Positions 53,362-64,000 of a DNA stretch of 64,000 nt are shown here, piece after piece (within the stretch, counting starts at the first letter, position 1; every line of letters starts with the position of its first letter). Where the stretch lies: NCBI RefSeq assembly GCF_030013205.1, contig NZ_CP122648.1, one strand, 5' to 3'. The notes under the pieces were generated by a model. That model was given only the letters and a program-made list of their open reading frames with translations. It had not been told where the DNA came from and made no database searches. The stretch comes from Escherichia coli. Its GTDB lineage: Bacteria > Pseudomonadota > Gammaproteobacteria > Enterobacterales > Enterobacteriaceae. Made by a program: the position numbers and the translations under genes.

Positions 53362-55401
53362 TCATCCCAGGAACCGTTGAGCACCAATTAGTTGCGCGAA
53401 GTAATCGGCACCAGCGTTCCGAACAATTTCCAACTTAACGTTCTGATCATTGTTTCCTGCTGCAGGGACAATCCCACGATTCATAGCCAGCGCCCGGATC
53501 ACATCTTCAACACTTACAGCTTTAGCGGCAGCACCATTTTCATGGTTAATAATGCCCTGAATTAGCTTTTTCATGACCTCAAAATTAGAACCATCGATTT
53601 TCTCCTTAACACCTAATCCGGTGTACTGAGAGAGATAGCTTTTATAGGACGATGTGTTATTTCCATCAGATGAAGGGGCATAAATATCAATAATCTGATC
53701 AATCGTATTTTTGCCGCGTTTCAGGTATAGCATTACCTGCCGATCTAAGGCGGCAATGCCTTCCAGCATCGTCGGGAAGCTGGCAAAACGGGCATTTGGC
53801 CCCGATTCCAGGGTAGCCCCTTTTTGTCCTGCGAAATTAAGATTTCCGGGATTGTTATTCCTGATCCCTCTGGATAAATATGCAGATCTGTTTACTTGAT
53901 TTGAAAATCCCTGCAATCCTCCAGGCCAGACCTTACCCGGATTGTTTTTTTGCCACTCCTGCACTTCGTTAAAATAATCAAAGTTGAAACGCCCCTCCAG
54001 CCCTTTCATTTCCTCACTGGTGGTAGGTGTGTCATTTGTAGGAATAGCCAATCCAGCTACTGTTCCGGCTGTAGCCCCAAGAAGACTTCCACCAACAACA
54101 CGGGCGGCAACTCCGGTCGTTGTGGCTGCCACAGCACCAACTCTCGATGGTCCAGCAAGTACTGCGGCCCCAAAAAGCCAGGGATGTTCAACCGCAAAAC
54201 CAACAAACCCGCTAAGTGCCTTAACAACCTTTGCAACGTTTTCGGCAAAATTGTTCAGGTCGTTATTAAAATCCGGGCCATTTACGTACTTACCAAGTTT
54301 ATCCAGCCCCGTTTCTACATCCGTCAGAATCCTTTTAAAGTTCTCACCATTCATGAAATTCAGGGCAGCATTCGTGGCACCATCAGACATTCTGATTAAA
54401 GCGTCTTCATTCCCCGCCATTGCTCCCTGAAATCCGCTGGTAAGCCGATCCCAGTTTTTTTCCAGGTTACTGGTAATATTCTGATATTTACTTGTATGTG
54501 CAGAGGTCAGTAACGAATCATTCTGCGCTGCACGTAACGAAAACTCTTTGTTGAGTTCAGGTATTTTGTCCTGATATTTGACTAACTGGTTAGTAAGACC
54601 AAAATTTACCCATCCAAGCCCCATTCCTCTGAAATTGCTCTGGGTAAGACCAGTTCCCTGATATTCCTTTGCCAGCGCTGCAACCTTTTTCAGGAATACA
54701 GGCAGGTTTTCAGTCGCGTTTTTATCAGGATTTAGCCCCAGATTAAGCAGGCCGACGCGGGCAGGATGCGATATATCATTTTGTGCTGCTGCCAGTGTAT
54801 TGAGCACATTGCCAACACCGGAAAAATAAGGCGAATAAGTGCTTTCTGCCGCCTTTAACTCTCCTGGCGTTGCCACCAGCTCATCTGCATTTTTCTGTTT
54901 CTCTACAACACTACGGGACATCATGCCAAAGCCAAACGGTCCGGCAACGCCCATAACCGAGAGTTTTGTTCCCCACGATACGGTTGTTTTAAACAGGTTG
55001 TTTAATCTTGAAGTGGTCGTCTGTAGTGTAGAATTGATCTGCTTGTAAGTTTTCAGCGTCTGTTGGGCATTTTTCCCCAGCCCGCTGAGATACTTATCAA
55101 ACATCGTTTCGCCGCGACCTTTATAGTTGCTTACGAACGAATCTGCTGTTTTTCCGCTGCCGACAAAGCGCCCTTTTTCGTCCCTCACTCTCCCGGATAC
55201 ATCCGGTCCTGTCCGACCAGATTTTGCCGCCACGGGTAAGCCTGCCCCCACGCTGCGCCCACTTTGCCCCGGTATTTTCATCGGCGTTCCGGCAGGGCCG
55301 ATCATCAGCCCGTTGCGATACTTTTCAAAAATTGCCTCAAGCCGTTTGAGGTGTTCTTCATTAACGTCCAGCGTCAGAACTGGCATCTGATTACCTGACA
55401 T
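53362..55401 (-). CDS. large Gly/Ala-rich protein, tape-measure-like (function uncertain)
   Basis: 679-aa ORF; hydrophobic Gly/Ala-rich segment (GFVGFAVEHPWLFGAAVLAGPSRVGAVAATTTGVAARVVGGSLLGATAGTVAGLAIP), helical N-terminal half, C-terminal NNNPGNLNF region; start codon overlaps the stop of the upstream frameshifted pair (TAATG). No NTPase motif found. Confidence 0.45.
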   Translation of the reverse strand: MSGNQMPVLTLDVNEEHLKRLEAIFEKYRNGLMIGPAGTPMKIPGQSGRSVGAGLPVAAKSGRTGPDVSGRVRDEKGRFVGSGKTADSFVSNYKGRGETMFDKYLSGLGKNAQQTLKTYKQINSTLQTTTSRLNNLFKTTVSWGTKLSVMGVAGPFGFGMMSRSVVEKQKNADELVATPGELKAAESTYSPYFSGVGNVLNTLAAAQNDISHPARVGLLNLGLNPDKNATENLPVFLKKVAALAKEYQGTGLTQSNFRGMGLGWVNFGLTNQLVKYQDKIPELNKEFSLRAAQNDSLLTSAHTSKYQNITSNLEKNWDRLTSGFQGAMAGNEDALIRMSDGATNAALNFMNGENFKRILTDVETGLDKLGKYVNGPDFNNDLNNFAENVAKVVKALSGFVGFAVEHPWLFGAAVLAGPSRVGAVAATTTGVAARVVGGSLLGATAGTVAGLAIPTNDTPTTSEEMKGLEGRFNFDYFNEVQEWQKNNPGKVWPGGLQGFSNQVNRSAYLSRGIRNNNPGNLNFAGQKGATLESGPNARFASFPTMLEGIAALDRQVMLYLKRGKNTIDQIIDIYAPSSDGNNTSSYKSYLSQYTGLGVKEKIDGSNFEVMKKLIQGIINHENGAAAKAVSVEDVIRALAMNRGIVPAAGNNDQNVKLEIVRNAGADYFAQLIGAQRFLG

Positions 55402-56083
55402 TACAATACTCCTGCGGGATTTTTGAATTTGAGCAGCTCACGAAACTGAGCTGCTGTTTTTACATTCAGACCGGAATCTGCACAGATGTCTCTGAATCCG
55501 GCTCCGGCTGAGTAGTCGAGGATGTCGCTGATGACGTGTTCGCCGTCGCGCCAGAACTGACGGCAGGCTTCAATGTCGGCAATGAATCGATCCATTCCGT
55601 AAGACTCAAGGACGAGCATTGAGTGCTCCATATTCCATTCACCGCATCCATAGTCCCCTTCGTCTGCTCCGGGGAATTTATCGACGAGACGCATGTAAAA
55701 AAAACAAGTTCACCCGCCACTTCGTCCAAATCAACGATTTCACGCTCCAGCGCCATATCGAGAGGGATTGTGTCGTAGCCTTTGCCCTCCACTGGATAAA
55801 CAAGGTTTGCCAGGCGAATAATTTCGTTTATGAGCGTATTACGTATGCCTTTCTCCCCATCCCATAAACCGGAGTCACGGGAGATTTTCTCCAGCATAAG
55901 GCAGGCAACGCGCGGACCCGCAACAACACCAAGACCTTCAGAAAAAATGGCAGAAAAGGTTTTACTCAGGATGAAGAAATGCTCTTTAAACACCTCTTTG
56001 CTGATCGGCGTGGCATGGAGCCAGCCATTACCCTTTTCAGTGCGCACAGGGATAATCAGATTTAAGTTTTTAGCAATTTTCAT
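55401..56083 (-). CDS. two overlapping same-strand ORFs joined by a probable programmed -1 frameshift (tail assembly chaperone G/GT-like)
   Basis: ORF A (56083 down to about 55466) reads ...DLDEVAGELVFF through a run of 8 T on the minus strand (8 A on plus at about 55696-55703); ORF B (about 55694..55401) is in the -1 frame and continues ...YMRLVDKFPGADEG. Upstream segment about 129 aa, downstream about 98 aa, directly 5' of the 679-aa gene. Confidence 0.4.
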
Positions 56084-56763
56084 GATTCACTCACTCTGTT
56101 TTTTTCCAGTTGATCCAGCCGCCCGGATATTTCTTCCAGTTTTTCCAGAGCTGGCTTGCAGGCCGCATCAATAACTTCACGGACCATTCCGGCGAGCTGT
56201 TCTTCTTCTGTCGGCGTTGTTACTTCCACACCTGATGGTTTCCCGCCCTTATCCCATACGCCCAACGGTACGAGCGCAACGTGATCGATAAGAAATGGCG
56301 TACCCTCAATGAAAAAATTGTCCTCGCCCATTACATCAGGAACTTCTGCCCCACCGGACGCACCACAAAACACAACCGACGGGCTGGTGGATACCTCCCC
56401 CCGTGCTTTCTGGATGTAATCGATGATTTCCTGCCCGTAAATCCGGCATACACCCCACACCTCGTCACCGCGAATATACGGCAACATGACGGTGCCAATA
56501 ATGCGCGACCGTTCGCCAACGTCTTCAATGGTTTTGCCTTCGGGATGGTCGATAATGACGGGTACTCCGGCGCAACGTTCCAGGAACTGCGGATTGAGAT
56601 AAGTTTGCGGTGAACGCCAGACAAATTCTTTTTCTTCGGCGCGGTAGGCCATGCCAGTCCCTGTAATACGCAGGTTAACCAGCCACATGTTGGAGAACTG
56701 ATAAGGCGACGGTAGCTGACCGTCCCGAATCTGCTTTGCCGCCTCAATTTCTGTTAAAAGCAT
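56080..56763 (-). CDS. phage-like hypothetical protein (227 aa)
   Basis: ORF MLLTEIEAAKQIRDGQLPSPYQFSNMWLVNLRITGTGMAYRAEEKEF; overlaps the start of the downstream gene by 4 nt (coupled operon). No family recognised with confidence; could be a tail-tube-type or protease-type protein. Confidence 0.5.
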   Translation of the reverse strand: MLLTEIEAAKQIRDGQLPSPYQFSNMWLVNLRITGTGMAYRAEEKEFVWRSPQTYLNPQFLERCAGVPVIIDHPEGKTIEDVGERSRIIGTVMLPYIRGDEVWGVCRIYGQEIIDYIQKARGEVSTSPSVVFCGASGGAEVPDVMGEDNFFIEGTPFLIDHVALVPLGVWDKGGKPSGVEVTTPTEEEQLAGMVREVIDAACKPALEKLEEISGRLDQLEKNRVSES

Positions 56764-56827
56764 AATGTCACCCGGTTATAATCAATAAGCCCCGCCAAAT
56801 CCGGCAGGGCTGAAATCAGCACGTTTT

Positions 56828-57415
56828 TCATGCCCCCGCGAGGCTTGCAACGTTAATTTTGACCAGGCGACGGGGAGGGATTTTGAAAGCACTAAGCCAG
56901 TTATTCGGATCCCCCTGATATTCAGTAATCCGGCGCCCGGCTTCATCCATCCTGACTTTTTTAGTCAAATAACCCGGCGTGTTTTCCACGGCCCACTGAG
57001 CACTTTCCTGAGCAGCCTTGTAAATCTGATCTTCCAGCACCGCCAGCGTTGCAGAATCTGAAACGGAACGAATATCCACATCACTGAATTTTTTAGCCAG
57101 CTTCTGTGCGCCAATTAATGCACGCTTGCGGTAATCCATCGACTTTTCACCAGCAAACGGGGCCGGAGCTCGACGGCCCATATTGCTGTATGCGGAATCC
57201 GCTTTGGCCTGGGCTTCTGCCAGTGAGGATTCATCTTCGACTGACGCGACGATGTTTTGATTAGCGTTATCCTCTTTTATGAAATCCTGTGCGGGGATCG
57301 CATTCAGAATTTCGATAATCTCCTGCGGAGTGCTGCCCTGCGACTCTGACAGAGCGTTAACCACCTCCATCAGTTTTAATCGCAAATCTTCTTTGCTTGC
57401 TGGCATTTTTACCAC
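56828..57415 (-). CDS. phage-like hypothetical protein (195 aa)
   Basis: ORF MVKMPASKEDLRLKLMEVVNALSESQGSTPQEIIEILNAIPAQDF; acidic/helical; first gene of the leftward operon after a promoter-like gap. Confidence 0.5.
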   Translation of the reverse strand: MVKMPASKEDLRLKLMEVVNALSESQGSTPQEIIEILNAIPAQDFIKEDNANQNIVASVEDESSLAEAQAKADSAYSNMGRRAPAPFAGEKSMDYRKRALIGAQKLAKKFSDVDIRSVSDSATLAVLEDQIYKAAQESAQWAVENTPGYLTKKVRMDEAGRRITEYQGDPNNWLSAFKIPPRRLVKINVASLAGA

Positions 57416-57445
57416 CTCTCTTTTTTCACCAAAAAATCACGACCA

Positions 57446-57643
57446 TCAGGCCGGACGTTCTACGGGATAAAGCGCCCGCTGCATTAAACGCCGGGCGACC
57501 TCATGAATGCTCGGAGCAATCCCCAGCGGAGAATTGCGGCGTTCCTCGTCCTGGATGCGCTGTAATGCTTCAATCTGATCACGAGCGAGTAAAACAGGTT
57601 TCACGCTGGCTTTTCTCATAGTCATATCTCCTGAACAAAACAA
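57446..57643 (-). CDS. small hypothetical protein (65 aa or shorter from an internal Met)
   Basis: ORF MFCSGDMTMRKASVKPVLLARDQIEALQRIQDEERRNSPLGIAPSIHEVARRLMQRALYPVERPA; possibly a small DNA-binding/antitoxin-like protein; no family recognised. Confidence 0.35.
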   Translation of the reverse strand: MFCSGDMTMRKASVKPVLLARDQIEALQRIQDEERRNSPLGIAPSIHEVARRLMQRALYPVERPA

Positions 57644-57749
57644 CGATTATGATTGCACAAACTGAAATGACGATCTACATCATTGCAATTTATGAAACAA
57701 TAACGCATGATGATCGCGTTCTTCCCATTGACTTCAATCACCTGAAAAA

Positions 57750-57785
57750 CAAAGCCCGCAACACTTCTGGCTGCGGGCTTTTTAC
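57750..57785 (-). terminator. intrinsic terminator downstream of the PerC-like gene
   Basis: Minus strand GCCCGCAGCCAGAAGTGTTGCGGGC hairpin followed by TTTGTTTTT. Confidence 0.5.
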
Positions 57786-57820
57786 TGGCACAAAAAAGCC
57801 GGGAAAAATCCCGGCCTCCG

Positions 57821-58108
57821 TCACTGACTGCAATTTTTCGATCCAGGGTATTTCCTGAATGCCTTACCATTGGGCTGATGTAATCCCATCCCGGCATGTG
57901 CCCGGCTGATGGTTTCGCGCATCTCCCCGAAATTATCCTGCCGTGCTGGTGGGCGTGCTGCCTTGCGGATACATTCCGCGCGACGTTTTGCCGCCTGTTC
58001 CCGTGCCTTGTCATCATTCGCCAGCATGATGACCTCAGCCCACCGCGCCGCCGCTCTCCGGTACAGACCACGCGCTTCCAGTGCTTCCGCTTTGCTGTCG
58101 TGAATCAT
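57821..58108 (-). CDS. PerC-family transcriptional activator-like protein
   Basis: 95-aa ORF MIHDSKAEALEARGLYRRAAARWAEVIMLANDDKAREQAAKRRAECIRKA; the KAExLExRGxYRRAAxRW pattern matches recalled PerC/Pch-type activators. Confidence 0.55.
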   Translation of the reverse strand: MIHDSKAEALEARGLYRRAAARWAEVIMLANDDKAREQAAKRRAECIRKAARPPARQDNFGEMRETISRAHAGMGLHQPNGKAFRKYPGSKNCSQ

Positions 58109-58647
58109 GCGCCTGTTTTCTCCTTTGCTACCCGGCGCTGACGTTTGCGCTTCTCATTCAGCGCCACCAGCCGCGTTTCTGCGTCCTGTTGTTCCTGTGG
58201 TGTCACCTCGCCGCACGGCTGGCCTTTCAGGTCGTAGCGTACCCCACCAGCCATTAAGGCGCGGTAATAGCGCGGACACTGTGCATAAGATGCCAGCGTC
58301 GCACGCAATGCCCCTGGACCGAATGCCAGCCCCCTGACGGCGAGATCCTGCATCAGGTCGTCGAATATCCCCACCTTAAGCGGCTTCGGTGCTTCCCGGC
58401 TGAATAATTCAGGCCACAACTCAGTGAGGCGGTTAATGCGCCTGCGGTTTTTGCGCTGGCGCTTGGTCATATGCCGCCACAGTGTCGCCCCTGTGGGCTT
58501 CTGCTGCGCTTTCTGGTTACCGGGCATCACTTTATGCGCCGATGTGGTTTTATCCTGCTCCTGCGCCGCCTGCGTCGTTTTCTGCGGCGTGCCGTAAATG
58601 CCTTTAGGTTTTCTGTTAATGGTCAGCTTAGTCATGCTTTGCCCCAT
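58105..58647 (-). CDS. ProQ/FinO-domain RNA-binding protein
   Basis: 180-aa ORF; basic N-terminus then LTELWPELFSREAPKPLKVGIFDDLMQDLA...GALRATLASYAQCPRYYRALMAGGVRYDLKGQPCGEVTPQEQQDAETRL, closely resembling the recalled ProQ N-terminal FinO domain. Confidence 0.7.
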   Translation of the reverse strand: MGQSMTKLTINRKPKGIYGTPQKTTQAAQEQDKTTSAHKVMPGNQKAQQKPTGATLWRHMTKRQRKNRRRINRLTELWPELFSREAPKPLKVGIFDDLMQDLAVRGLAFGPGALRATLASYAQCPRYYRALMAGGVRYDLKGQPCGEVTPQEQQDAETRLVALNEKRKRQRRVAKEKTGA

Positions 58648-58719
58648 CGTTTTTACTGATTGCTACGTTGCCCAACGGCACTGACACAACATTCTGTTTT
58701 CATTTTTAACATTCCTAAT

Positions 58720-59115
58720 TTTTTAATTCCTCACCTGCTGCACAGTGAAAATTTATGAAGTTAATAACAATATGATTTTAAATGTATTTTTAAGTACTCA
58801 CTTTTTAATCCTTATATATACGCAAAAGTGAGGTAAATAGTTAAGTTTTAGTTAATATCTTGCATGGTGTGTTTTTTAACCTACCTGTTATTTTTATTAC
58901 CTCATTTCTATTAACTCACCATTCCTCACTTTTGTTCCTCACTTTTTGTTATTCCCGTCCTGCTCCTCACCTGTTTTTCTTGTTGTTGTAATGTCTTGTT
59001 TTACAATATGTTTTTCATTCCTCACTTTTTGACCTATATACAGGTGAGAAAGTGAGGAGTGGCGTTGATTTTTTGTTAAATTACCCGCCATCCTCACTTT
59101 TGCTCCTCACTTTTT
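58720..59115. repeat. iteron array (TCCTCACTTTT and variants, direct and inverted), candidate replication origin
   Basis: At least 10 copies of CCTCAC(T/C)TTT: e.g. 58728, 58924, 58937, 58964, 59020, 59091, 59105 direct and 58826, 59044 inverted, within AT-rich DNA directly 3' of the helicase gene; the last copies overlap the helicase stop codon. Confidence 0.6.
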
Positions 59116-60529
59116 ACAGTGGGCGCACATAATCACCGTCAATAGCGATTACGCCGTCGCTTTCCAGCTTGTACAGCCAGCGCCGGAAGTTTTTCATTTC
59201 ATACCCCAGCTTTTTCATATCATCGCGGAGAAGGGCGATAGTGCACGCCTCCCCGTGTGCTGTTCGCGTTCTGATGCACTGCCATAGCGCAGCGTGATTT
59301 TCCGTCTTGTTCCCGGCCTCCTCGATGCGTTCCAGTTCAACAGGTGGGCGCGGCTTATCCACAACCACCAGCGACGTGATTAACTCCCCGTCAGTGTCGG
59401 TAAAAAGCTCCACCACGCGTAAATCATATGCAGCCTCTTTCAGTTCCTCCGCGTCCTTCATTTTGGTGCAGGAGATAACCAGGGCTTCACTGTCCGCACC
59501 TTCACGGCGAATACGGTATTCAGCGTCCAGAGATGCACGAAATGCACTGGAACCACGCGCCCCTTTTGTTTCATCCTTGCCGGAATGGTGAACCACCAGT
59601 ACCGTGGCCCCCGTGCGTCGTTTCAGTTCGTCACATCCACGGATAAACGCCCCCATATCCCGCGCGTCATTTTCATCATTACCGCCAAAGCAACGCGCCA
59701 GCGTATCCAGAATAATCATGCGTACCGGTTTACCCGTTTCCCGTTCAACCTGACGGGAAGCGATGACCATTTCATCAACATCAAGCGGGACCGCCGGAAA
59801 AATCGGGCGGTTTACCAGGTACAGATTTTTCACCCGTTCATCATTAACGATTTCCCATGCTTTGATACGACGAGGGACACCAATGCCACCTTCACCGACG
59901 ACATACATCACCGAACCATGCGCCACCCTGCGGCCTCCCCAGTGGCGACCCGTGGCAACATGACACGCCCAGGAACACGCGAGGAACGATTTATAGGAAC
60001 CGCTCGCGCCGTATGTGCTGCACAATGAATTAGCCGGAATCACGCCCTTAACGACATAATCAAGCTGTGTGTCGTACCCTGCAGATCCAATACTCATTGG
60101 TAGTGTGGTTTTTCGCTGGTCGTTTTTTTCTTCCTCTGGTATCTCTCCGGACAGTCTTTTCTGGCGCTCTCGTTCCAGATATTCGCGCCACTCCTCGCGT
60201 TTCTGGCTGTGCATTCCCTCGGGGTAATAATTCGCATCCCGTACACCTGCCGCCGCCAGCTTTTGCCCGATGGCGTTAATATTTGACGGCTTGATGTGGC
60301 CTGCCTTGTACAGCCGGACACAATAGCGACCATCGTCGATAATTTTCAGGTCTGCCAGTTCGTCAAGCTGGCTGTCTCCCAGCCATACAGGCGGCACGTT
60401 GTCGCCAGCAAGTCGCCCGTCCTGCTCCTGCCACTGTTTCGCGTGCGCCCAGGCATCACTACCCGCAAAAATAATGACTTCGGTCATTTTGTCGTGTGGC
60501 TGTTTTTTTAAGTTCGGTGCCAGTTTCAT
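59114..60529 (-). CDS. RepA/DnaB-like replicative helicase (RecA-fold ATPase)
   Basis: 471-aa ORF with P-loop GASGSYKS, Walker-B-like ILDTLARCFGG and LVVHHSGKDETKGARGSSAF, typical of phage/satellite helicase-type initiators; start overlaps the upstream gene stop. Confidence 0.75.
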   Translation of the reverse strand: MKLAPNLKKQPHDKMTEVIIFAGSDAWAHAKQWQEQDGRLAGDNVPPVWLGDSQLDELADLKIIDDGRYCVRLYKAGHIKPSNINAIGQKLAAAGVRDANYYPEGMHSQKREEWREYLERERQKRLSGEIPEEEKNDQRKTTLPMSIGSAGYDTQLDYVVKGVIPANSLCSTYGASGSYKSFLACSWACHVATGRHWGGRRVAHGSVMYVVGEGGIGVPRRIKAWEIVNDERVKNLYLVNRPIFPAVPLDVDEMVIASRQVERETGKPVRMIILDTLARCFGGNDENDARDMGAFIRGCDELKRRTGATVLVVHHSGKDETKGARGSSAFRASLDAEYRIRREGADSEALVISCTKMKDAEELKEAAYDLRVVELFTDTDGELITSLVVVDKPRPPVELERIEEAGNKTENHAALWQCIRTRTAHGEACTIALLRDDMKKLGYEMKNFRRWLYKLESDGVIAIDGDYVRPL

Positions 60530-60825
60530 TTTGTGCCCCTGAATGCGTTAATCATGTTTTTCATTTTCTGAATATTTGCCCGTGCCTTTGCGTTGCTGGT
60601 GGGCTGTTTGCATGGCGTGGCCTGTATCAGTGAAAAATCACGCCGGAACTGATAAACAGGCATCACGCAGTCATATTCGTACCCATCACGGCGGTAAGTA
60701 ACGCACCGTCCCGCCACGCTTTTAATCGTTACAGTGCCGCCGTATTTATCTTTGAAAATATCGCCGGGGCGGATTTCAGGCCGAGAGAGACCGCTGGCAG
60801 TAAAGCCAGAATTTTTCTTTTTCAT
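60526..60825 (-). CDS. hypothetical protein (99 aa)
   Basis: ORF MKKKNSGFTASGLSRPEIRPGDIFKDKYGGTVTIKSVAGRCVTYRRDGYEYDC; coupled (ATGA overlap) to the helicase gene. Confidence 0.5.
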   Translation of the reverse strand: MKKKNSGFTASGLSRPEIRPGDIFKDKYGGTVTIKSVAGRCVTYRRDGYEYDCVMPVYQFRRDFSLIQATPCKQPTSNAKARANIQKMKNMINAFRGTK

Positions 60826-60831
60826 GGTTTT

Positions 60832-61197
60832 TTACTCCTGCGTCTTGCTCTGAATTACCTGATAACCGCAATCGGTCAGCAATTCGATAAATTCCGGCAA
60901 TGTGCCGAAACAGCAATTATCACGCATACGTTCGCGGGATACCTCAACGCCGTTTTCGTAGTGACTCACCATGCGTCCGGTAAAATGCAGATCATCATCG
61001 TGATGGCACGTTGACGGCTTAATCAGTCGCGCACGTTCTGCCAGCTCCAGCAATGCTTCAACACTTCCGGCAATTGCACCATCCGGCAGGCGATAATTAC
61101 TTACCACGCGTCCATTCTCCACATTGACCAGTAGCTGCCCGGTAAATTTCTCATCAAACTGAATGCTGTTAAGGTCAGAAATTGACAGGTTATGCAT
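60832..61197 (-). CDS. hypothetical protein (121 aa)
   Basis: ORF MHNLSISDLNSIQFDEKFTGQLLVNVENGRVVSNYRLPDGAIAGSVEALLELAERA; same operon, overlaps the upstream gene by 8 nt. Confidence 0.5.
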   Translation of the reverse strand: MHNLSISDLNSIQFDEKFTGQLLVNVENGRVVSNYRLPDGAIAGSVEALLELAERARLIKPSTCHHDDDLHFTGRMVSHYENGVEVSRERMRDNCCFGTLPEFIELLTDCGYQVIQSKTQE

Positions 61198-61552
61198 GGT
61201 GCACCTCCTGGCGAATACGGGCGGCGAATACCATCACGCAGCCATCAGGAGATTGCTGGCGTGCTTCCTGTTCGCTGGTGGCCTCGATGTGAATCACGCG
61301 CGGTTGTGCCGTACTCAGGGCGATAAAACGCCAGATAAAATTGTTTTCGCATTTCTGAATAAACAGCGTGTTTTCTTCGCGCCCTTTCCATGTTGCCGAG
61401 ATATAGCCCATGCCATTGAGCATCTCGCAGGCATCAACCAGCGTATCAGCGGCTACGTGTACAGTGTTTTTACCGTCAGCTATGCAATCACGGTGCACCG
61501 CCAGGAAGGTGTATATAAATTTAGGGTGAGTTTGGGTATGCTGTGTTCCAGC
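61190..61552 (-). CDS. hypothetical protein (about 120 aa)
   Basis: Internal start of the long minus ORF: MAGTQHTQTHPKFIYTFLAVHRDCIADGKNTVHVAADTLVDACEMLNGMGY, preceded by GAGGT RBS; everything upstream in that frame looks like antisense junk. Confidence 0.45.
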   Translation of the reverse strand, partial: AGTQHTQTHPKFIYTFLAVHRDCIADGKNTVHVAADTLVDACEMLNGMGYISATWKGREENTLFIQKCENNFIWRFIALSTAQPRVIHIEATSEQEARQQSPDGCVMVFAARIRQEVHHA

Positions 61553-61754
61553 CATAATCGTTACCTCATTTAACGGTTTGGTTAGAAGCCCCGTTACTGC
61601 TCCAACAGTGCGGGGCTTCGTCGTTTCAATTGCTGAATTGCATGTATCAGCCCTTGTGGTATTCAGATTACATTTTGGTGAATACCATTTCAAGTCTTTT
61701 TTGGTATTCACTTTTGTATTACACTGCATCCCGTTATTAATCGGAGGTGCAAAC

Positions 61755-62060
61755 ATGTCCACGAGTTCTGTTAACAATAAGTCACAGCAACTGAATGCCA
61801 GATTTCCACATGAAGTAGTGAGTGGCATTGAGGCATCCCTACAGCCAGGGGAAACTAAAGCGAATTTTATAGTTACGGCTGTACGCGGTGAGATCGCCCG
61901 CCGCCAGGCAGAAGGAAGCGGAGAAAACCCCCTGGTTTCTTCGCTCGATGCGCTGGCGCAGGTGGAAAAAATCGGAGTCAAAGCTGCCGAGGAGATCGGG
62001 CAGCTCGTCACCGTCGCACGTGAAGAACTCCAGCGCCGCAAGGCCAAAGAATCAGAATAA
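61755..62060 (+). CDS. small DNA-binding-like protein (possible ribbon-helix-helix / YlcI-YnfO-like), the only convincing plus-strand gene in the element
   Basis: ATG 61755 preceded by GGAGG RBS; MSTSSVNNKSQQLNARFPHEVVSGIEASLQPGETKANFIVTAVRGEIARRQAEGSGENPL (101 aa); divergent from the flanking minus-strand genes. Confidence 0.5.
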   Translation: MSTSSVNNKSQQLNARFPHEVVSGIEASLQPGETKANFIVTAVRGEIARRQAEGSGENPLVSSLDALAQVEKIGVKAAEEIGQLVTVAREELQRRKAKESE

Positions 62061-62283
62061 TAACTATCATCGCCGTGGTGTGAGGAACTCCGGCGCATTG
62101 CTTTACAGGTACACAGAATGACCAACAAAGAATCAACCAAAACACCATCACCAACTCGTAAGAGACGACGCAAAAATATAGCGCATGAACATGAATCAGA
62201 AAGATTCGCACCTTGTTCGTTTGCTCTTGAGAAATTCCTTAAAGAGCACAGGAAAAAGCTCTCGTTGCAAACCTTGGAACGAA

Positions 62284-62692
62284 CCAAATCTGACTGATCA
62301 CATTGCCCACCAGCCGCAAATGTGGCATTGTTGGTGATGCGTTCAAGTATGTAGCTTTTCCACTGGCGGCTCTCTACGGTCGCCTTTGTTTTATCCAGAA
62401 CGAAATCAGACATCAGATTGATCAGCACCTGGCGACCTGACAAAATCGCATCAGTCGCGCCACCAGCAAAATTTTTTGCTTTCCGGACGGCGTGACCAAC
62501 GGCATTTTGCAGCAAAATATTCTGCATTTCTGGCGTGCTGTAGTAACGGTGATCAGCGCCTTCACTCTGTGCGACCACAACGCTATAATCTGCCTCGTAG
62601 ACAGTAAGCAATATGGCGCAGTAGGCTATTCGTTCACAAAGGCGCTCCGGCAACGGGGCGCTTTTTGTTATGTTCATCGCGTTACGCCTCAC
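62284..62692 (-). CDS. hypothetical protein; protein-like N-terminal about 135 codons of a 500-codon open frame (true 3' end unclear)
   Basis: MRRNAMNITKSAPLPERLCERIAYCAILLTVYEADYSVVVAQSEGADHRYYSTPEMQNILLQNAVGHAVRK is protein-like, but the frame has no stop until 61190 and runs antisense through the plus-strand gene with Ser/Cys-rich junk; possible lost stop, frameshift or sequencing error. Confidence 0.35.
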
Positions 62693-62696
62693 ACCA

Positions 62697-62903
62697 TTAC
62701 GCAGCCGTTCCGCGCGCTTCTTCCTCGCGTTCTTTCAGCCAGGCCAGCACCTCATCTTCATACCAGCCAACACGACGCAGACCGATTTTGAAGCCTTTCG
62801 GGAATTTTCCGGCGTTGATCATGTCCTGTAGCGAACTGTCTGCCTTGATGCGCAGAATATTTTTTACTTCCTGACGGGTAAGGATTTTTCTGATTGTTTC
62901 CAC
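62697..62903 (-). CDS. alpA: AlpA-family phage regulatory protein (excisionase-like HTH)
   Basis: 68-aa ORF METIRKILTRQEVKNILRIKADSSLQDMINAGKFPKGFKIGLRRVGWYEDEVLAWLKERE, the AlpA/Vis pattern. Confidence 0.8.
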   Translation of the reverse strand: METIRKILTRQEVKNILRIKADSSLQDMINAGKFPKGFKIGLRRVGWYEDEVLAWLKEREEEARGTAA

Positions 62904-62971
62904 TATGTTTTACCTCGTTAATCCGGCGTATTCCGGTGATAAATACGGTAAAACAGGGCAGGGCGGGAAAA

Positions 62972-63008
62972 ACAGTACCCACCGTTTTAAAACGGTACCC
63001 ACTGTTTT
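62972..63008. promoter_or_regulatory. candidate operator in the alpA upstream region
   Basis: ACAGTACCCACCGTTTTAAAACGGTACCCACTGTTTTTT: two direct GTACCCAC copies flanking the perfect palindrome CCGTTTTAAAACGG, about 70-100 bp upstream of the alpA start. Confidence 0.4.
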
Positions 63009-63039
63009 TTATCTCATTGATTACGCTTTTCTTTTTGCA

Positions 63040-63066
63040 AAAAAATAGCGACCGCAAAGGGCCGCT
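63040..63066 (-). terminator. intrinsic terminator after the 76-aa ORF
   Basis: Minus strand ATAGCGGCCCTTTGCGGTCGCTAT hairpin followed by TTTTTTT. Confidence 0.45.
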
Positions 63067-63073
63067 ATTGTGA

Positions 63074-63304
63074 TTACCGCTTCCACTTCTTAGGTCGTCC
63101 ACCGCATTTAAGGCTGGTGGGTCTCAGCACCTTGTCGATGCTTTCAGCCAGATTTTTCGATGCGCCACGCGAGCGCAAAAAACTGACTACCTCGTGTTTT
63201 GTGGGGGCTGTTGATTTGTCTTCCGGATCGTACGTTGACCAGAATTCACGATTTGCCATTAAGGCCAGTTGCAGGCCTTCGCCGTAGGCGGTGGTATTTT
63301 GCAT
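63074..63304 (-). CDS. hypothetical small protein (76 aa)
   Basis: ORF MQNTTAYGEGLQLALMANREFWSTYDPEDKSTAPTKHEVVSFLRSRGASKNL between int and alpA; no family recognised. Confidence 0.45.
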   Translation of the reverse strand: MQNTTAYGEGLQLALMANREFWSTYDPEDKSTAPTKHEVVSFLRSRGASKNLAESIDKVLRPTSLKCGGRPKKWKR

Positions 63305-63402
63305 AATAGAATTTTCATATACTCCGGCCTTGTCGTTAAATTTGTGGCAATTATACGATGGTTTGGCATGGTTTTCACTGGTTGCACTGGCTTTTTGTAC
63401 AG

Positions 63403-64000
63403 TTACACGGCACGGATACCCCTTTTACCACTGGCTATGGTCACTCCGGTAGCTGCGGCCTCTACAAATTCCCCCCACCAGCGCATAAGCACCACGCGCT
63501 TTTCCAGGTAGTTACTTCGGTTATATGCTCGCCTTACCTCGTTCGTGTCCACGTGTGCGAGTGCGGCCTCGATTACGTCCGGCTCGAATCCTTCCTCGTT
63601 CGCTGCTGTACTGAATATGGCGCGTAATCCGTGAGACACCAGCACACCAGCGTATCCCATCCGGCGCAATGCAGCGTTAGCGGTCTGGCTGCTCATTGGC
63701 AGCATTGGATTTTTAAGGCTGGGAAAAACATGTTCCCTGTGTGCGCTGATTGGCTTCATTGTTTCCAGTACAGCCATCGCCTGACCGCAAAGAGGGATCA
63801 CATGGTCACGGCGCATCTTCATGCGTCCGGCTGGAATCGTCCAGGTTTCGGCATCGAGATCTATTTCTTCCCAGCGTGCGGCGGCTGCTTCGGCTGGGCG
63901 TGCTACGGTCAGCAGTTGCCACTCAATCAGCAATCTGGTTTGCCGTTCTATGCTGGCGACCGATAAATCGTGCATTAGCTGCGGTAGCTGTTCCGGTCGG
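63403..64000 (-). CDS. int: tyrosine recombinase / P4-type integrase, C-terminal catalytic part (gene starts beyond right edge)
   Basis: Frame is open to the window edge; C-terminal sequence ...HDLSVASIERQTRLLIEWQLLTVARPAEAAAARWEEIDL...HVIPL...LVSHGLRAIFSTAANEEGF...RRAYNRSNYLEKR shows the R...HxxR...Y catalytic residues of tyrosine integrases. Confidence 0.85.
   Translation of the reverse strand, partial: RPEQLPQLMHDLSVASIERQTRLLIEWQLLTVARPAEAAAARWEEIDLDAETWTIPAGRMKMRRDHVIPLCGQAMAVLETMKPISAHREHVFPSLKNPMLPMSSQTANAALRRMGYAGVLVSHGLRAIFSTAANEEGFEPDVIEAALAHVDTNEVRRAYNRSNYLEKRVVLMRWWGEFVEAAATGVTIASGKRGIRAV

Follow-up and report, generated by a model that had tools for sequence, protein, structure and literature searches.

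A putative tandem operator in the alpA control region of an Escherichia coli phage satellite and its candidate ligand Orf76

Satellite switches and the alpA locus

Phage-inducible chromosomal islands (PICIs) of Gram-negative bacteria are switched on through alpA, the product of which is the master activator in EcCICFT073 and EcCIMP1 (PMC6092414, PMC11773190). The gene is silent until a helper phage acts, and its activity has been reported to be SOS-independent (PMC6092414). AlpA activates its own promoter in EcCICFT073 (PMC6092414), and an alpA-lux fusion in EcCIMP1 reaches its full level only with alpA present (PMC11773190); helper phages induce alpA partly independently of AlpA (PMC6092414, PMC11773190). 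The route by which the helper phage switches alpA on was left unidentified, as was any PICI repressor, with the inducer described as "under study" (PMC6092414), and the very existence of a Gram-negative PICI repressor has been called unclear (PMC6092414, PMC11773190, PMC10111431). Our literature search found no definition of any cis-element of a PICI alpA promoter. Here we describe such a candidate element, a tandem site of 40 bp (positions 62969-63008) upstream of alpA in a 64,000-nucleotide stretch of the E. coli contig NZ_CP122648.1, hereafter the window. Judged from comparative sequence analysis, the site is in all likelihood a functional protein-binding control element of alpA. We lean towards Orf76, a 76-residue protein encoded beside it, as its ligand, and only tentatively propose repression as its effect on alpA. 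The combined reading, a tandem operator in the alpA control region with Orf76 as the most likely ligand and the alpA promoter as the probable target of repression, is one that we hold with about equal belief and doubt.

We classify the element that carries the locus as a PICI-type phage satellite of ~13 kb at tRNA-Pro. Over the 821 bp compared (62600-63420), identity to E. coli UMNF18 is 100%; in that strain a ~13-kb island lies between tRNA-Pro/yejM and yejO with the gene order int, the 76-aa gene, alpA, divergent YlcI/YnfO, Icd-like, DUF4222, a RepA-family helicase, ProQ/FinO, PerC, DUF2213 and others. As marks of a Gram-negative PICI we used a length of ~10-15 kb at a tRNA or fixed site, co-oriented int, alpA and replication gene, and no full phage morphogenesis set; the annotation of the UMNF18 locus and Pfam matches show these gene features, and relatives of the island occur as 7-14 kb IMG/VR contigs. 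Induction and packaging by a helper phage are documented for other islands (PMC6092414, PMC11773190). The local genes of the window all lie on the minus strand, in the order int (3' part), orf76, a terminator-like hairpin, the site and alpA. The P4-type integrase gene is present with its 3' part (63403-64000, minus strand), while the rest of the gene and the tRNA-Pro attachment (att) site continue past the window. It is followed by orf76 (63074-63304, minus strand), which encodes the proposed operator binder, and by alpA (62697-62903, minus strand), which encodes a 68-aa member of the Phage_AlpA/HTH_17 family (Phage_AlpA E = 4.5e-8), presumed to be the master activator of this island as well.

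The locus shares features with the Stl switch of Staphylococcus aureus pathogenicity islands (SaPIs) and Gram-positive PICIs. In both, the gene of an island-encoded regulator adjoins the promoter that starts the satellite lytic programme, and in our proposed model this promoter would likewise be held off until a helper phage intervenes. Unlike Orf76, a protein of 76 aa whose gene runs in the same direction as int and alpA, Stl is large, divergently transcribed and unrelated in sequence, and the target here would be the promoter of an activator gene, alpA. Repression and its relief by the helper have been demonstrated for Stl, whereas for Orf76 we infer them. EcCICFT073 and EcCIMP1 belong to the same island class, with the order int ... 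alpA ... replication genes (PMC6092414, PMC11773190), and have the same alpA promoter region, whose control decides induction. In contrast to the window, they lack both an orf76-family gene and the site with its core motif GTACCCAC and dyads, and their spacers carry other repeats. The AlpA of Pseudomonas aeruginosa, a Q21-like antiterminator of >140 residues with its AlpA-binding element (ABE) (PMC7969949, PMC9371919), has in common with this system the name and the action of a regulator close to a promoter with a terminator nearby. It shares no homology with the 68-aa Phage_AlpA protein of the window, and we rejected a relationship as a coincidence of names.

Architecture and conservation of the tandem site

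A first-pass annotation of the window had pointed to a composite of palindrome and repeats between a terminator and alpA. This composite is real, and the string quoted for it, ACAGTACCCACCGTTTTAAAACGGTACCCACTGTT, is located at 62972-63006. The perfect 14-bp palindrome CCGTTTTAAAACGG that had been noted lies at 62982-62995 and actually extends to 16 bp (ACCGTTTTAAAACGGT, 62981-62996), where the abutting arms of two larger units meet. Repeat analysis delimits these as two tandem direct repeats of 20 bp, 62969-62988 (AAAACAGTACCCACCGTTTT) and 62989-63008 (AAAACGGTACCCACTGTTTT), which are 90% identical to each other and together form the putative dual operator, a feature without assigned strand. 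Each unit is an imperfect dyad of the form AAAACnGT-N4-ACnGTTTT, giving four arms in all. In gene (minus-strand) orientation the two units read AAAACAGTGGGTACCGTTTT and AAAACGGTGGGTACTGTTTT; unit 2, proximal to alpA (62969-62988), is composed of AAAACGGT-GGGT-ACTGTTTT and the distal unit 1 (62989-63008) of AAAACAGT-GGGT-ACCGTTTT. On the plus strand, copies of GTACCCAC occupy 62975-62982 (unit 2) and 62995-63002 (unit 1). Palindrome and flanking direct repeats are thus both present as first annotated, but the conserved parts in the E. coli lineage are the four A/T-rich arms, while the GTACCCAC core is the part common to very distant islands.

The site is placed between the terminator-like hairpin and the alpA start, 66-105 bp upstream of the latter, with its two units on the same face of the DNA helix. 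Two dyad and repeat units of 20 bp fall within the 15-20 bp expected of operator symmetry. The 20-mer consensus (<=3 mismatches) has only these two matches in the window, none of 100 shuffles reached two matches, which makes the site non-random, and no further copies were found in the window or the island, including the vicinity of either island end. Like the OR/OL-type operators of phage lambda, the site presents adjacent dyads of 17-20 bp at what would be a key early promoter, so spaced that bound proteins would face the same side. It differs from them in that there is no sequence or protein homology and that just two sites are present, which abut with a 20-bp period and have no divergent promoter pair.

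Conservation in homologous islands, which had been suggested as a check on the site, was found at several depths. A blastn search of complete E. coli genomes with the alpA-plus-site segment gave 371 records with >=80% coverage of the query; of 441 matching records, 294 have an identity of 60-80% (~78% among the matches listed). In the matches shown, the alignment stops just past the site. Overall, ~370 of 5,426 complete E. coli genomes carry the segment, many of them Shiga toxin-producing E. coli (STEC). In aligned relatives the site is kept, whereas alignment between groups fails in the terminator region and over the 14 bp on the downstream side of the site. One record was set aside: RM13745 (L130:1800-2500) at first suggested a recombinant that has the site without alpA. 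We rejected this reading on finding low-complexity G/T- and A-rich junk in place of alpA; although the genome is labelled complete, this is almost certainly an artefact of assembly.

For an unbiased view we retrieved 52 loci through AlpA alone, so as not to select on the site. Both units are present in 50 of the 52 loci, and the alpA-proximal unit is kept with invariant arms in all 52. The remaining two, L112 and its sibling (IMG/VR 2874945390_000001), carry a clean deletion of exactly one 20-bp unit and could serve as natural single-operator controls. Among 16 distinct variants, unit 1 changes at positions 6, 9-12 and 20 (plus one variant each at 7 and 15) and unit 2 only at positions 29-32, where its centre reads GGGT, GAGT, GGGA or TGGT and stays within one mismatch of GTACCCAC. 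The arms AAAAC.GT and AC.GTTTT are otherwise invariant. Unit 1 is thus the more variable of the two, and in one relative its 20 bp are perfectly palindromic, TAAACGGTTATAACCGTTTA. Column identity averages 0.92 in the 20-column block of the site core and 0.79 and 0.75 in the two edge blocks, compared to 0.59-0.75 in the flanking non-coding DNA and 0.68-0.97 in both genes, the divergent 5' end of orf76 excepted. In this alignment the site is conserved to the degree of coding DNA amid diverged flanks. The invariant arms and an identity above that of the flanks indicate purifying selection, with the constraint distributed as is typical of contacts with a protein.

Orf76 and the distribution of the site

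Within the relatives compared, only orf76 co-occurs with the site. A group of relatives (group B) in which Int is 83%, AlpA 68-76% and Orf76 67% identical has the site. Locus L005 (strain C21), at the same tRNA-Pro site and with Int 87% (77% in its N-terminal domain) and AlpA 73% identical, has neither orf76 nor the site, and L086 likewise lacks both. As orf76, the terminator and the site are contiguous, they could move together as one block within E. coli, and the case for a functional link is made by a motif test in distant islands.

For this test, GTACCCAC with <=1 mismatch was set as an a priori hypothesis and five further loci from a metagenome scan were added as new material; with the E. 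coli type excluded, 13 independent distant loci were examined. Identity of the distant loci to the window is 49-55% for the Orf76 domain and 34-37% for Int, and their AlpA-like proteins are of five types with 26-39% identity (one more, a local match of 16 residues, has 50%). The motif is present in 9 of 13 spacers between the orf76-family gene and alpA, with ~0.14 expected per spacer (binomial 9e-6), and in none of ten int-alpA spacers of islands without the gene (Fisher 9e-4). Its density in the 13 loci is 6.55 per kb of spacer versus 0.54 per kb elsewhere (Poisson 6e-12), and a de novo discriminative 8-mer screen ranked GTACCCAC joint first. Examples are TGGTACCCATCA, which occurs twice in L198, AGTGGTACCCATTT in L132, two copies of GGGCACCCACCC plus TGTACCCACT in L136 and GTGCACCCACCC in L196. 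A comparison within one AlpA type points in the same direction: the spacer of L189, which combines an EcCIMP1-type AlpA with the gene, is unrelated to that of MP1, which has the same AlpA type without the gene, and RGTGG-type repeats are found in the L189 spacer only. The simplest reading of these patterns is that the domain, itself conserved, recognises a core motif that is likewise conserved, roughly GGTG-N1-2-YACC (in the window AGTGGGTACC and GGTGGGTACT), and that the invariant A4/T4 arms would be an addition by the E. coli lineage.

Searches of Pfam, PHROG and NCBIfam gave no match for Orf76 itself, and in a word-based search it was confined to E. coli. With an exhaustive profile search, 590 proteins reached E <= 1e-3. 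In most of them the full 76-aa sequence aligns to the C-terminal 60-70 residues of a hypothetical protein of 190-300 aa; the sources are many metagenomes as well as Pectobacterium, Kluyvera and Vreelandella. The family follows the pattern S.GL...FWSTYDPeD..TAP.K.eV..yL...GaS.NLA.AvD.vLRP....GRPkK. Orf76 is the stand-alone form of this undescribed conserved C-terminal domain. In six of seven contexts read, the family gene is followed by a spacer of 140-260 bp and a small gene of AlpA/HTH_17 type; a P4-type integrase lies upstream in all four contexts whose contigs reach that far, and where the contig continues past the alpA-like gene, AntA, Bro-N, DUF4222 or primase genes follow. Among the long forms, P0020, P0021 and P0024 share an N-terminal motif, HWK.V.EF(T/S)..(Q/E)AALLLAGIDP, that has no family assignment and could represent a sensor or oligomerisation domain. 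One protein of 2552 aa (P0016) matches profile positions 32-53 in 25 separate stretches.

The AlphaFold2 model of Orf76, built on a 23-sequence alignment (predicted local distance difference test, pLDDT, 84), places helices at residues 9-22, 36-45 and 50-60; a four-residue turn parts the second from the third, after which comes the conserved basic tail LRP....GGRPKKWKR. Searches by structure and by sequence found no relative of solved structure. Recognition of DNA by a helix-turn-helix (HTH) together with an arm in the minor groove is known from the GRPR arm of Hin recombinase and, for the arm, from the GRP motifs of AT-hooks. Orf76 may resemble these in its GRP(K/R)K tail beside an HTH-like helix pair, as may the site in its G/C core flanked by A4/T4; as a difference, the tail of Orf76 lies C-terminal to the helices, and no structural match was obtained. 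The HTH-like spacing, the AT-hook-like tail and the comparative association with the site together suggest that Orf76 binds DNA. Two apparent relatives were discarded. P0014, a 90-aa protein that seemed to link Orf76 to the AlpA family, is a deletion chimera: Orf76 residues 1-41 are fused to AlpA residues 22-68, and the deletion removes the terminator and the operator. It is deposited under the nematode Cooperia oncophora and is probably bacterial contamination. EcCIMP1_002 was rejected as an Orf76 homologue, MP1 being without any open reading frame (ORF) of the FWSTYD type.

Control of alpA and competing readings

In the proposed mechanism, Orf76 would recognise the GGTGGGTAC-type core, with its AT-hook-like GRPKKWKR tail lying in the flanking A4/T4 tracts. 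Occupation of both units would cover the alpA promoter or start region and keep alpA off in the quiescent island. The upstream terminator would block read-through from int and orf76 into alpA, and a leader hairpin that sequesters the Shine-Dalgarno (SD) sequence would limit translation of alpA, so that helper-phage induction would have to relieve or override this control. DNA binding by Orf76, its stoichiometry, the repressive sign and the helper-phage link are steps that we infer.

The predicted intrinsic terminator of orf76 (63037-63069, minus strand) has a 10-bp stem, a 6-nt loop and a following T7 in the terminator scan, the hairpin itself spanning 63044-63069. At the same position, relatives of 78% identity have a hairpin of unrelated sequence with a T-run, that is, a terminator before the site is conserved in position and not in sequence. 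The alpA leader (62906-62960, minus strand) is predicted to fold into an SD-sequestering outer stem around a CCGG-N6-CCGG hairpin. The alpA start codon is GTG (62903), and GAGG stands nine bases before it; in the outer stem, 62946-62954 pairs with 62907-62914/5, with the SD sequence GAGG at 62913-62916, so that GUUUUACC (62947-62954) pairs with the SD-overlapping GGUAAAAC, and the inner hairpin occupies 62923-62936. Group B has the compensatory pair GAUUUACC/GGUAAAUC, a change from U-A to A-U between groups A and B, and the leaders of L088 and L089, relatives from Pectobacterium and Brenneria, have entirely different arms (CCUCAUC/GAUGAGG) around the same inner hairpin. These structures come from per-sequence folding and duplex tests; RNAalifold recovered only the invariant CCGG hairpin, as MAFFT had misaligned the arms. 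The stem suggests translational control of alpA across alleles. Together with the positional terminator it fits a design that keeps alpA tightly off. In L004 (3184-3420) and L124, a 10-bp tandem duplication, CACCGGAATA, doubles the first CCGG arm of the inner hairpin in the leader.

If the leader hairpin is functional, alpA transcription should start at or upstream of ~62957. This disfavours a promoter downstream of the site, including P-down (-10 TACCGT), which would exclude the 5' arm of the conserved hairpin, and leaves two candidates, both of weak score. P-up (63011-63040, minus strand; TTGCAA-18-TGAGAT) keeps its position in group B (TTTATA-17-CAATAT) despite unrelated sequence and, if used, would put the operator at about +1 to +40. 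P-mid (62972-63001, minus strand; TGGGTA-18-TACTGT) is tentatively placed inside the operator, with its -35 in unit 1, its -10 TACTGT in unit 2 and the palindrome centre near -24.5. MerR-type promoters have a dyad centred in an over-long spacer of 19-20 bp between good -35 and -10 hexamers. In P-mid the palindrome would be centred in this way, the spacer is 18 bp and the hexamers are weak; a Pfam scan found no encoded MerR-family protein with an effector domain. Either geometry would fit repression by occupancy better than upstream activation.

Several observations weigh against Orf76 as an operator-bound repressor of alpA. EcCICFT073 and EcCIMP1 are without the gene yet silent until induced, and Orf76 is therefore not a universal PICI repressor. 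The contiguity of orf76, terminator and site leaves room for one indel block to account for their co-occurrence in E. coli. The strict motif is missing from four of the 13 distant spacers, where GGTGGCACC- or GGTGACCACC-type variants, or nothing obviously related, are found instead. Members of the EcCIMP1-type integrase clade have a tandem GGGGGTAC(N)TT pair immediately upstream of int, irrespective of the presence of the orf76-family gene, and GGGTAC-like cores are consequently not exclusive to Orf76-family loci. On the expression side, no good sigma-70 promoter is predicted for alpA, every candidate scoring weakly, and the promoter-like site upstream of orf76 (63350-63378, minus strand; GTGAAA-17-TATAAT), a consensus match only, was not recovered in group B. 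The GGGTAC-like cores of the EcCIMP1-type clade are probably Int or Pint (int promoter) sites, and the int-upstream repeats of the window island itself differ from the GGGGGTAC type. At L131:4000-4060, L197:1585-1640 and L198:165-220, the GGGGGTAC(N)TT pair is accompanied by an inverted GTACCCCCA that overlaps the int start.

The first-pass annotation had named AlpA, the 76-aa protein and the integrase as candidate binders; comparative evidence favours the 76-aa protein, and the site tracks neither of the other two. A positive feedback in which AlpA, bound to the repeats, activates its own promoter would agree with the AlpA-dependence of PalpA in EcCICFT073 and of full alpA-lux expression in EcCIMP1 (PMC6092414, PMC11773190), with the presence of upstream repeat arrays at other alpA alleles and with the restriction of the site, within the island, to the alpA upstream region. 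We nevertheless regard this as unlikely. The site does not follow AlpA similarity, being missing in L005 (73% identity), L080 and L086 (72%) and kept beside an AlpA of 68% identity, and GTACCCAC-type motifs stand beside five unrelated AlpA-like types only where an orf76-family gene is present. Furthermore, winged helices of the Xis/AlpA type usually act as monomers on phased direct repeats while the units here are dyads, and with a start upstream of ~62957 the site would not be at an upstream activator position. AlpA could bind elsewhere, or together with Orf76. Repeat arrays upstream of alpA appear to be general but allele-specific: the int-alpA spacer of EcCICFT073 (L101:8160-8525) has six (G/A)AACAAC in 10-bp phase and three GACACAA-type repeats near alpA, with a terminator-like hairpin between both sets, while L079 carries AAAACTTCCA six times and L086 carries GGAGCCAATTT four times and CCCATTATTTAAA three times. 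A docking site for a helper-phage inducer or a host transcription factor that switches alpA on would suit both the dyad symmetry, as expected for a dimeric regulator, and the induction of alpA by an unidentified helper factor partly independently of AlpA (PMC6092414, PMC11773190). However, a BLAST search of the site region against 50,697 phage genomes gave chance-level matches, none significant, and in 49 IMG/VR contigs with the dual pattern the site is upstream of alpA, most of these contigs being satellite-sized (7-14 kb) with the site ~1.65 kb from one end. We know of no E. coli factor whose consensus fits (LexA, PhoP, CpxR, NarL and GntR-type were compared); for LexA, the box CTGT-N8-ACAG is contradicted by the reversed order ACAG...CTGT and the long gap. 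Such a factor would also leave the tracking of the orf76-family gene by the motif across distant hosts unexplained, and we consider this reading quite improbable.

Explanations that do not involve a regulator at the DNA fare worse. In favour of a 5'-leader hairpin, attenuator or cruciform, the 40-mer can form a long hairpin (-16.6 kcal/mol) with U5 behind it, and the terminator scan flagged the inner part of the 40-mer. Its stability is ordinary, though (z = -1.7; 10 of 200 shuffles are equally or more stable), the stem has just three G-C pairs, changes at pairing positions are not compensatory (A-U to G-U and U-U; C-G to A-G), and distant loci have the core motif as dispersed copies instead of a hairpin; a structural role is thus very doubtful. 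The alternative of an integrase arm-type or excisionase site, raised alongside the operator in the first annotation, draws on the position of the repeats within the integration module, on the arm-binding domain of P4-type integrases and on the GGGGGTAC repeats with a similar core that adjoin int in the EcCIMP1-type clade. Yet two genes and a terminator separate the site from the att core, a distance of ~1.3 kb, while arm-type sites would be expected within roughly 200 bp, on the P and P' arms. The att-proximal region upstream of int holds another repeat, (G)TAGCTA, five times, and no copies of the site occur at the island ends. In addition, the 87%-identical integrase of L005 uses the same att without the site, while the 83%-identical one of group B comes with it. 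The conserved dyad element at alpA stands, whereas a recombination site is scarcely credible here. In UMNF18 (L001:14050-14140) the other repeat lies in the interval that separates tRNA-Pro from the int start, outside the window on its right-hand side, as five (G)TAGCTA(Y)A in both orientations; these copies are likelier candidates for integrase arm-type or Pint control sites than the operator site. Replication-origin iterons were rejected too, since members of group B retain the site whether their replicase is of the RepA-helicase or the primase type.

Two further features adjoin alpA at its 3' side. A 500-codon open frame (61190-62692, minus strand) begins 5 nt past the alpA stop, overlaps the annotated YlcI/YnfO and Icd-like genes and has no Pfam match. 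It is either spurious or a frame like eta of P4 that would be translationally coupled to alpA, as described for eta in P4 (PMC10111431). The zone just 3' of alpA is annotated as Icd-like or Ash pseudogenes in relatives. It includes a 65-bp segment (62600-62665) with a hairpin that scores as a plus-strand terminator. This segment is 100% identical in all seven listed genomes that lack the rest of the query, and ~290 matching records cover <80% of the query. It may be a shared immunity or RNA module; Rfam gave nothing relevant in 50000-64000, the segment included.

Returning to Orf76 as the probable ligand of a tandem operator, the new elements are a putative tandem operator under selection and an undescribed, widespread, integrase-adjacent domain with a matching conserved DNA motif. 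PICI silence and the switching of alpA by helpers are an open problem in the literature (PMC6092414), for which the locus offers a compact test system of a 40-bp operator, a 76-aa candidate ligand and the promoter of a master switch. As the domain and the core motif recur in islands of Pectobacterium, Kluyvera and Vreelandella and on many metagenomic contigs, a result obtained at this locus would apply more widely. The family occurs commonly among pathogenic E. coli, and the islands carry PerC-type virulence regulators. Even if Orf76 does not bind, the site would be the best-defined cis-element of any PICI alpA promoter. In its widest form, it may be speculated, with considerable doubt, that the Orf76 family is an unrecognised class of DNA-binding maintenance regulators of Gram-negative satellites and P4-integrase islands, a counterpart of Stl: GGTGGGTAC-type operators would silence alpA, helpers would neutralise the regulator, the long forms would carry an N-terminal sensor and the 76-aa form would be the bare DNA-binding module.

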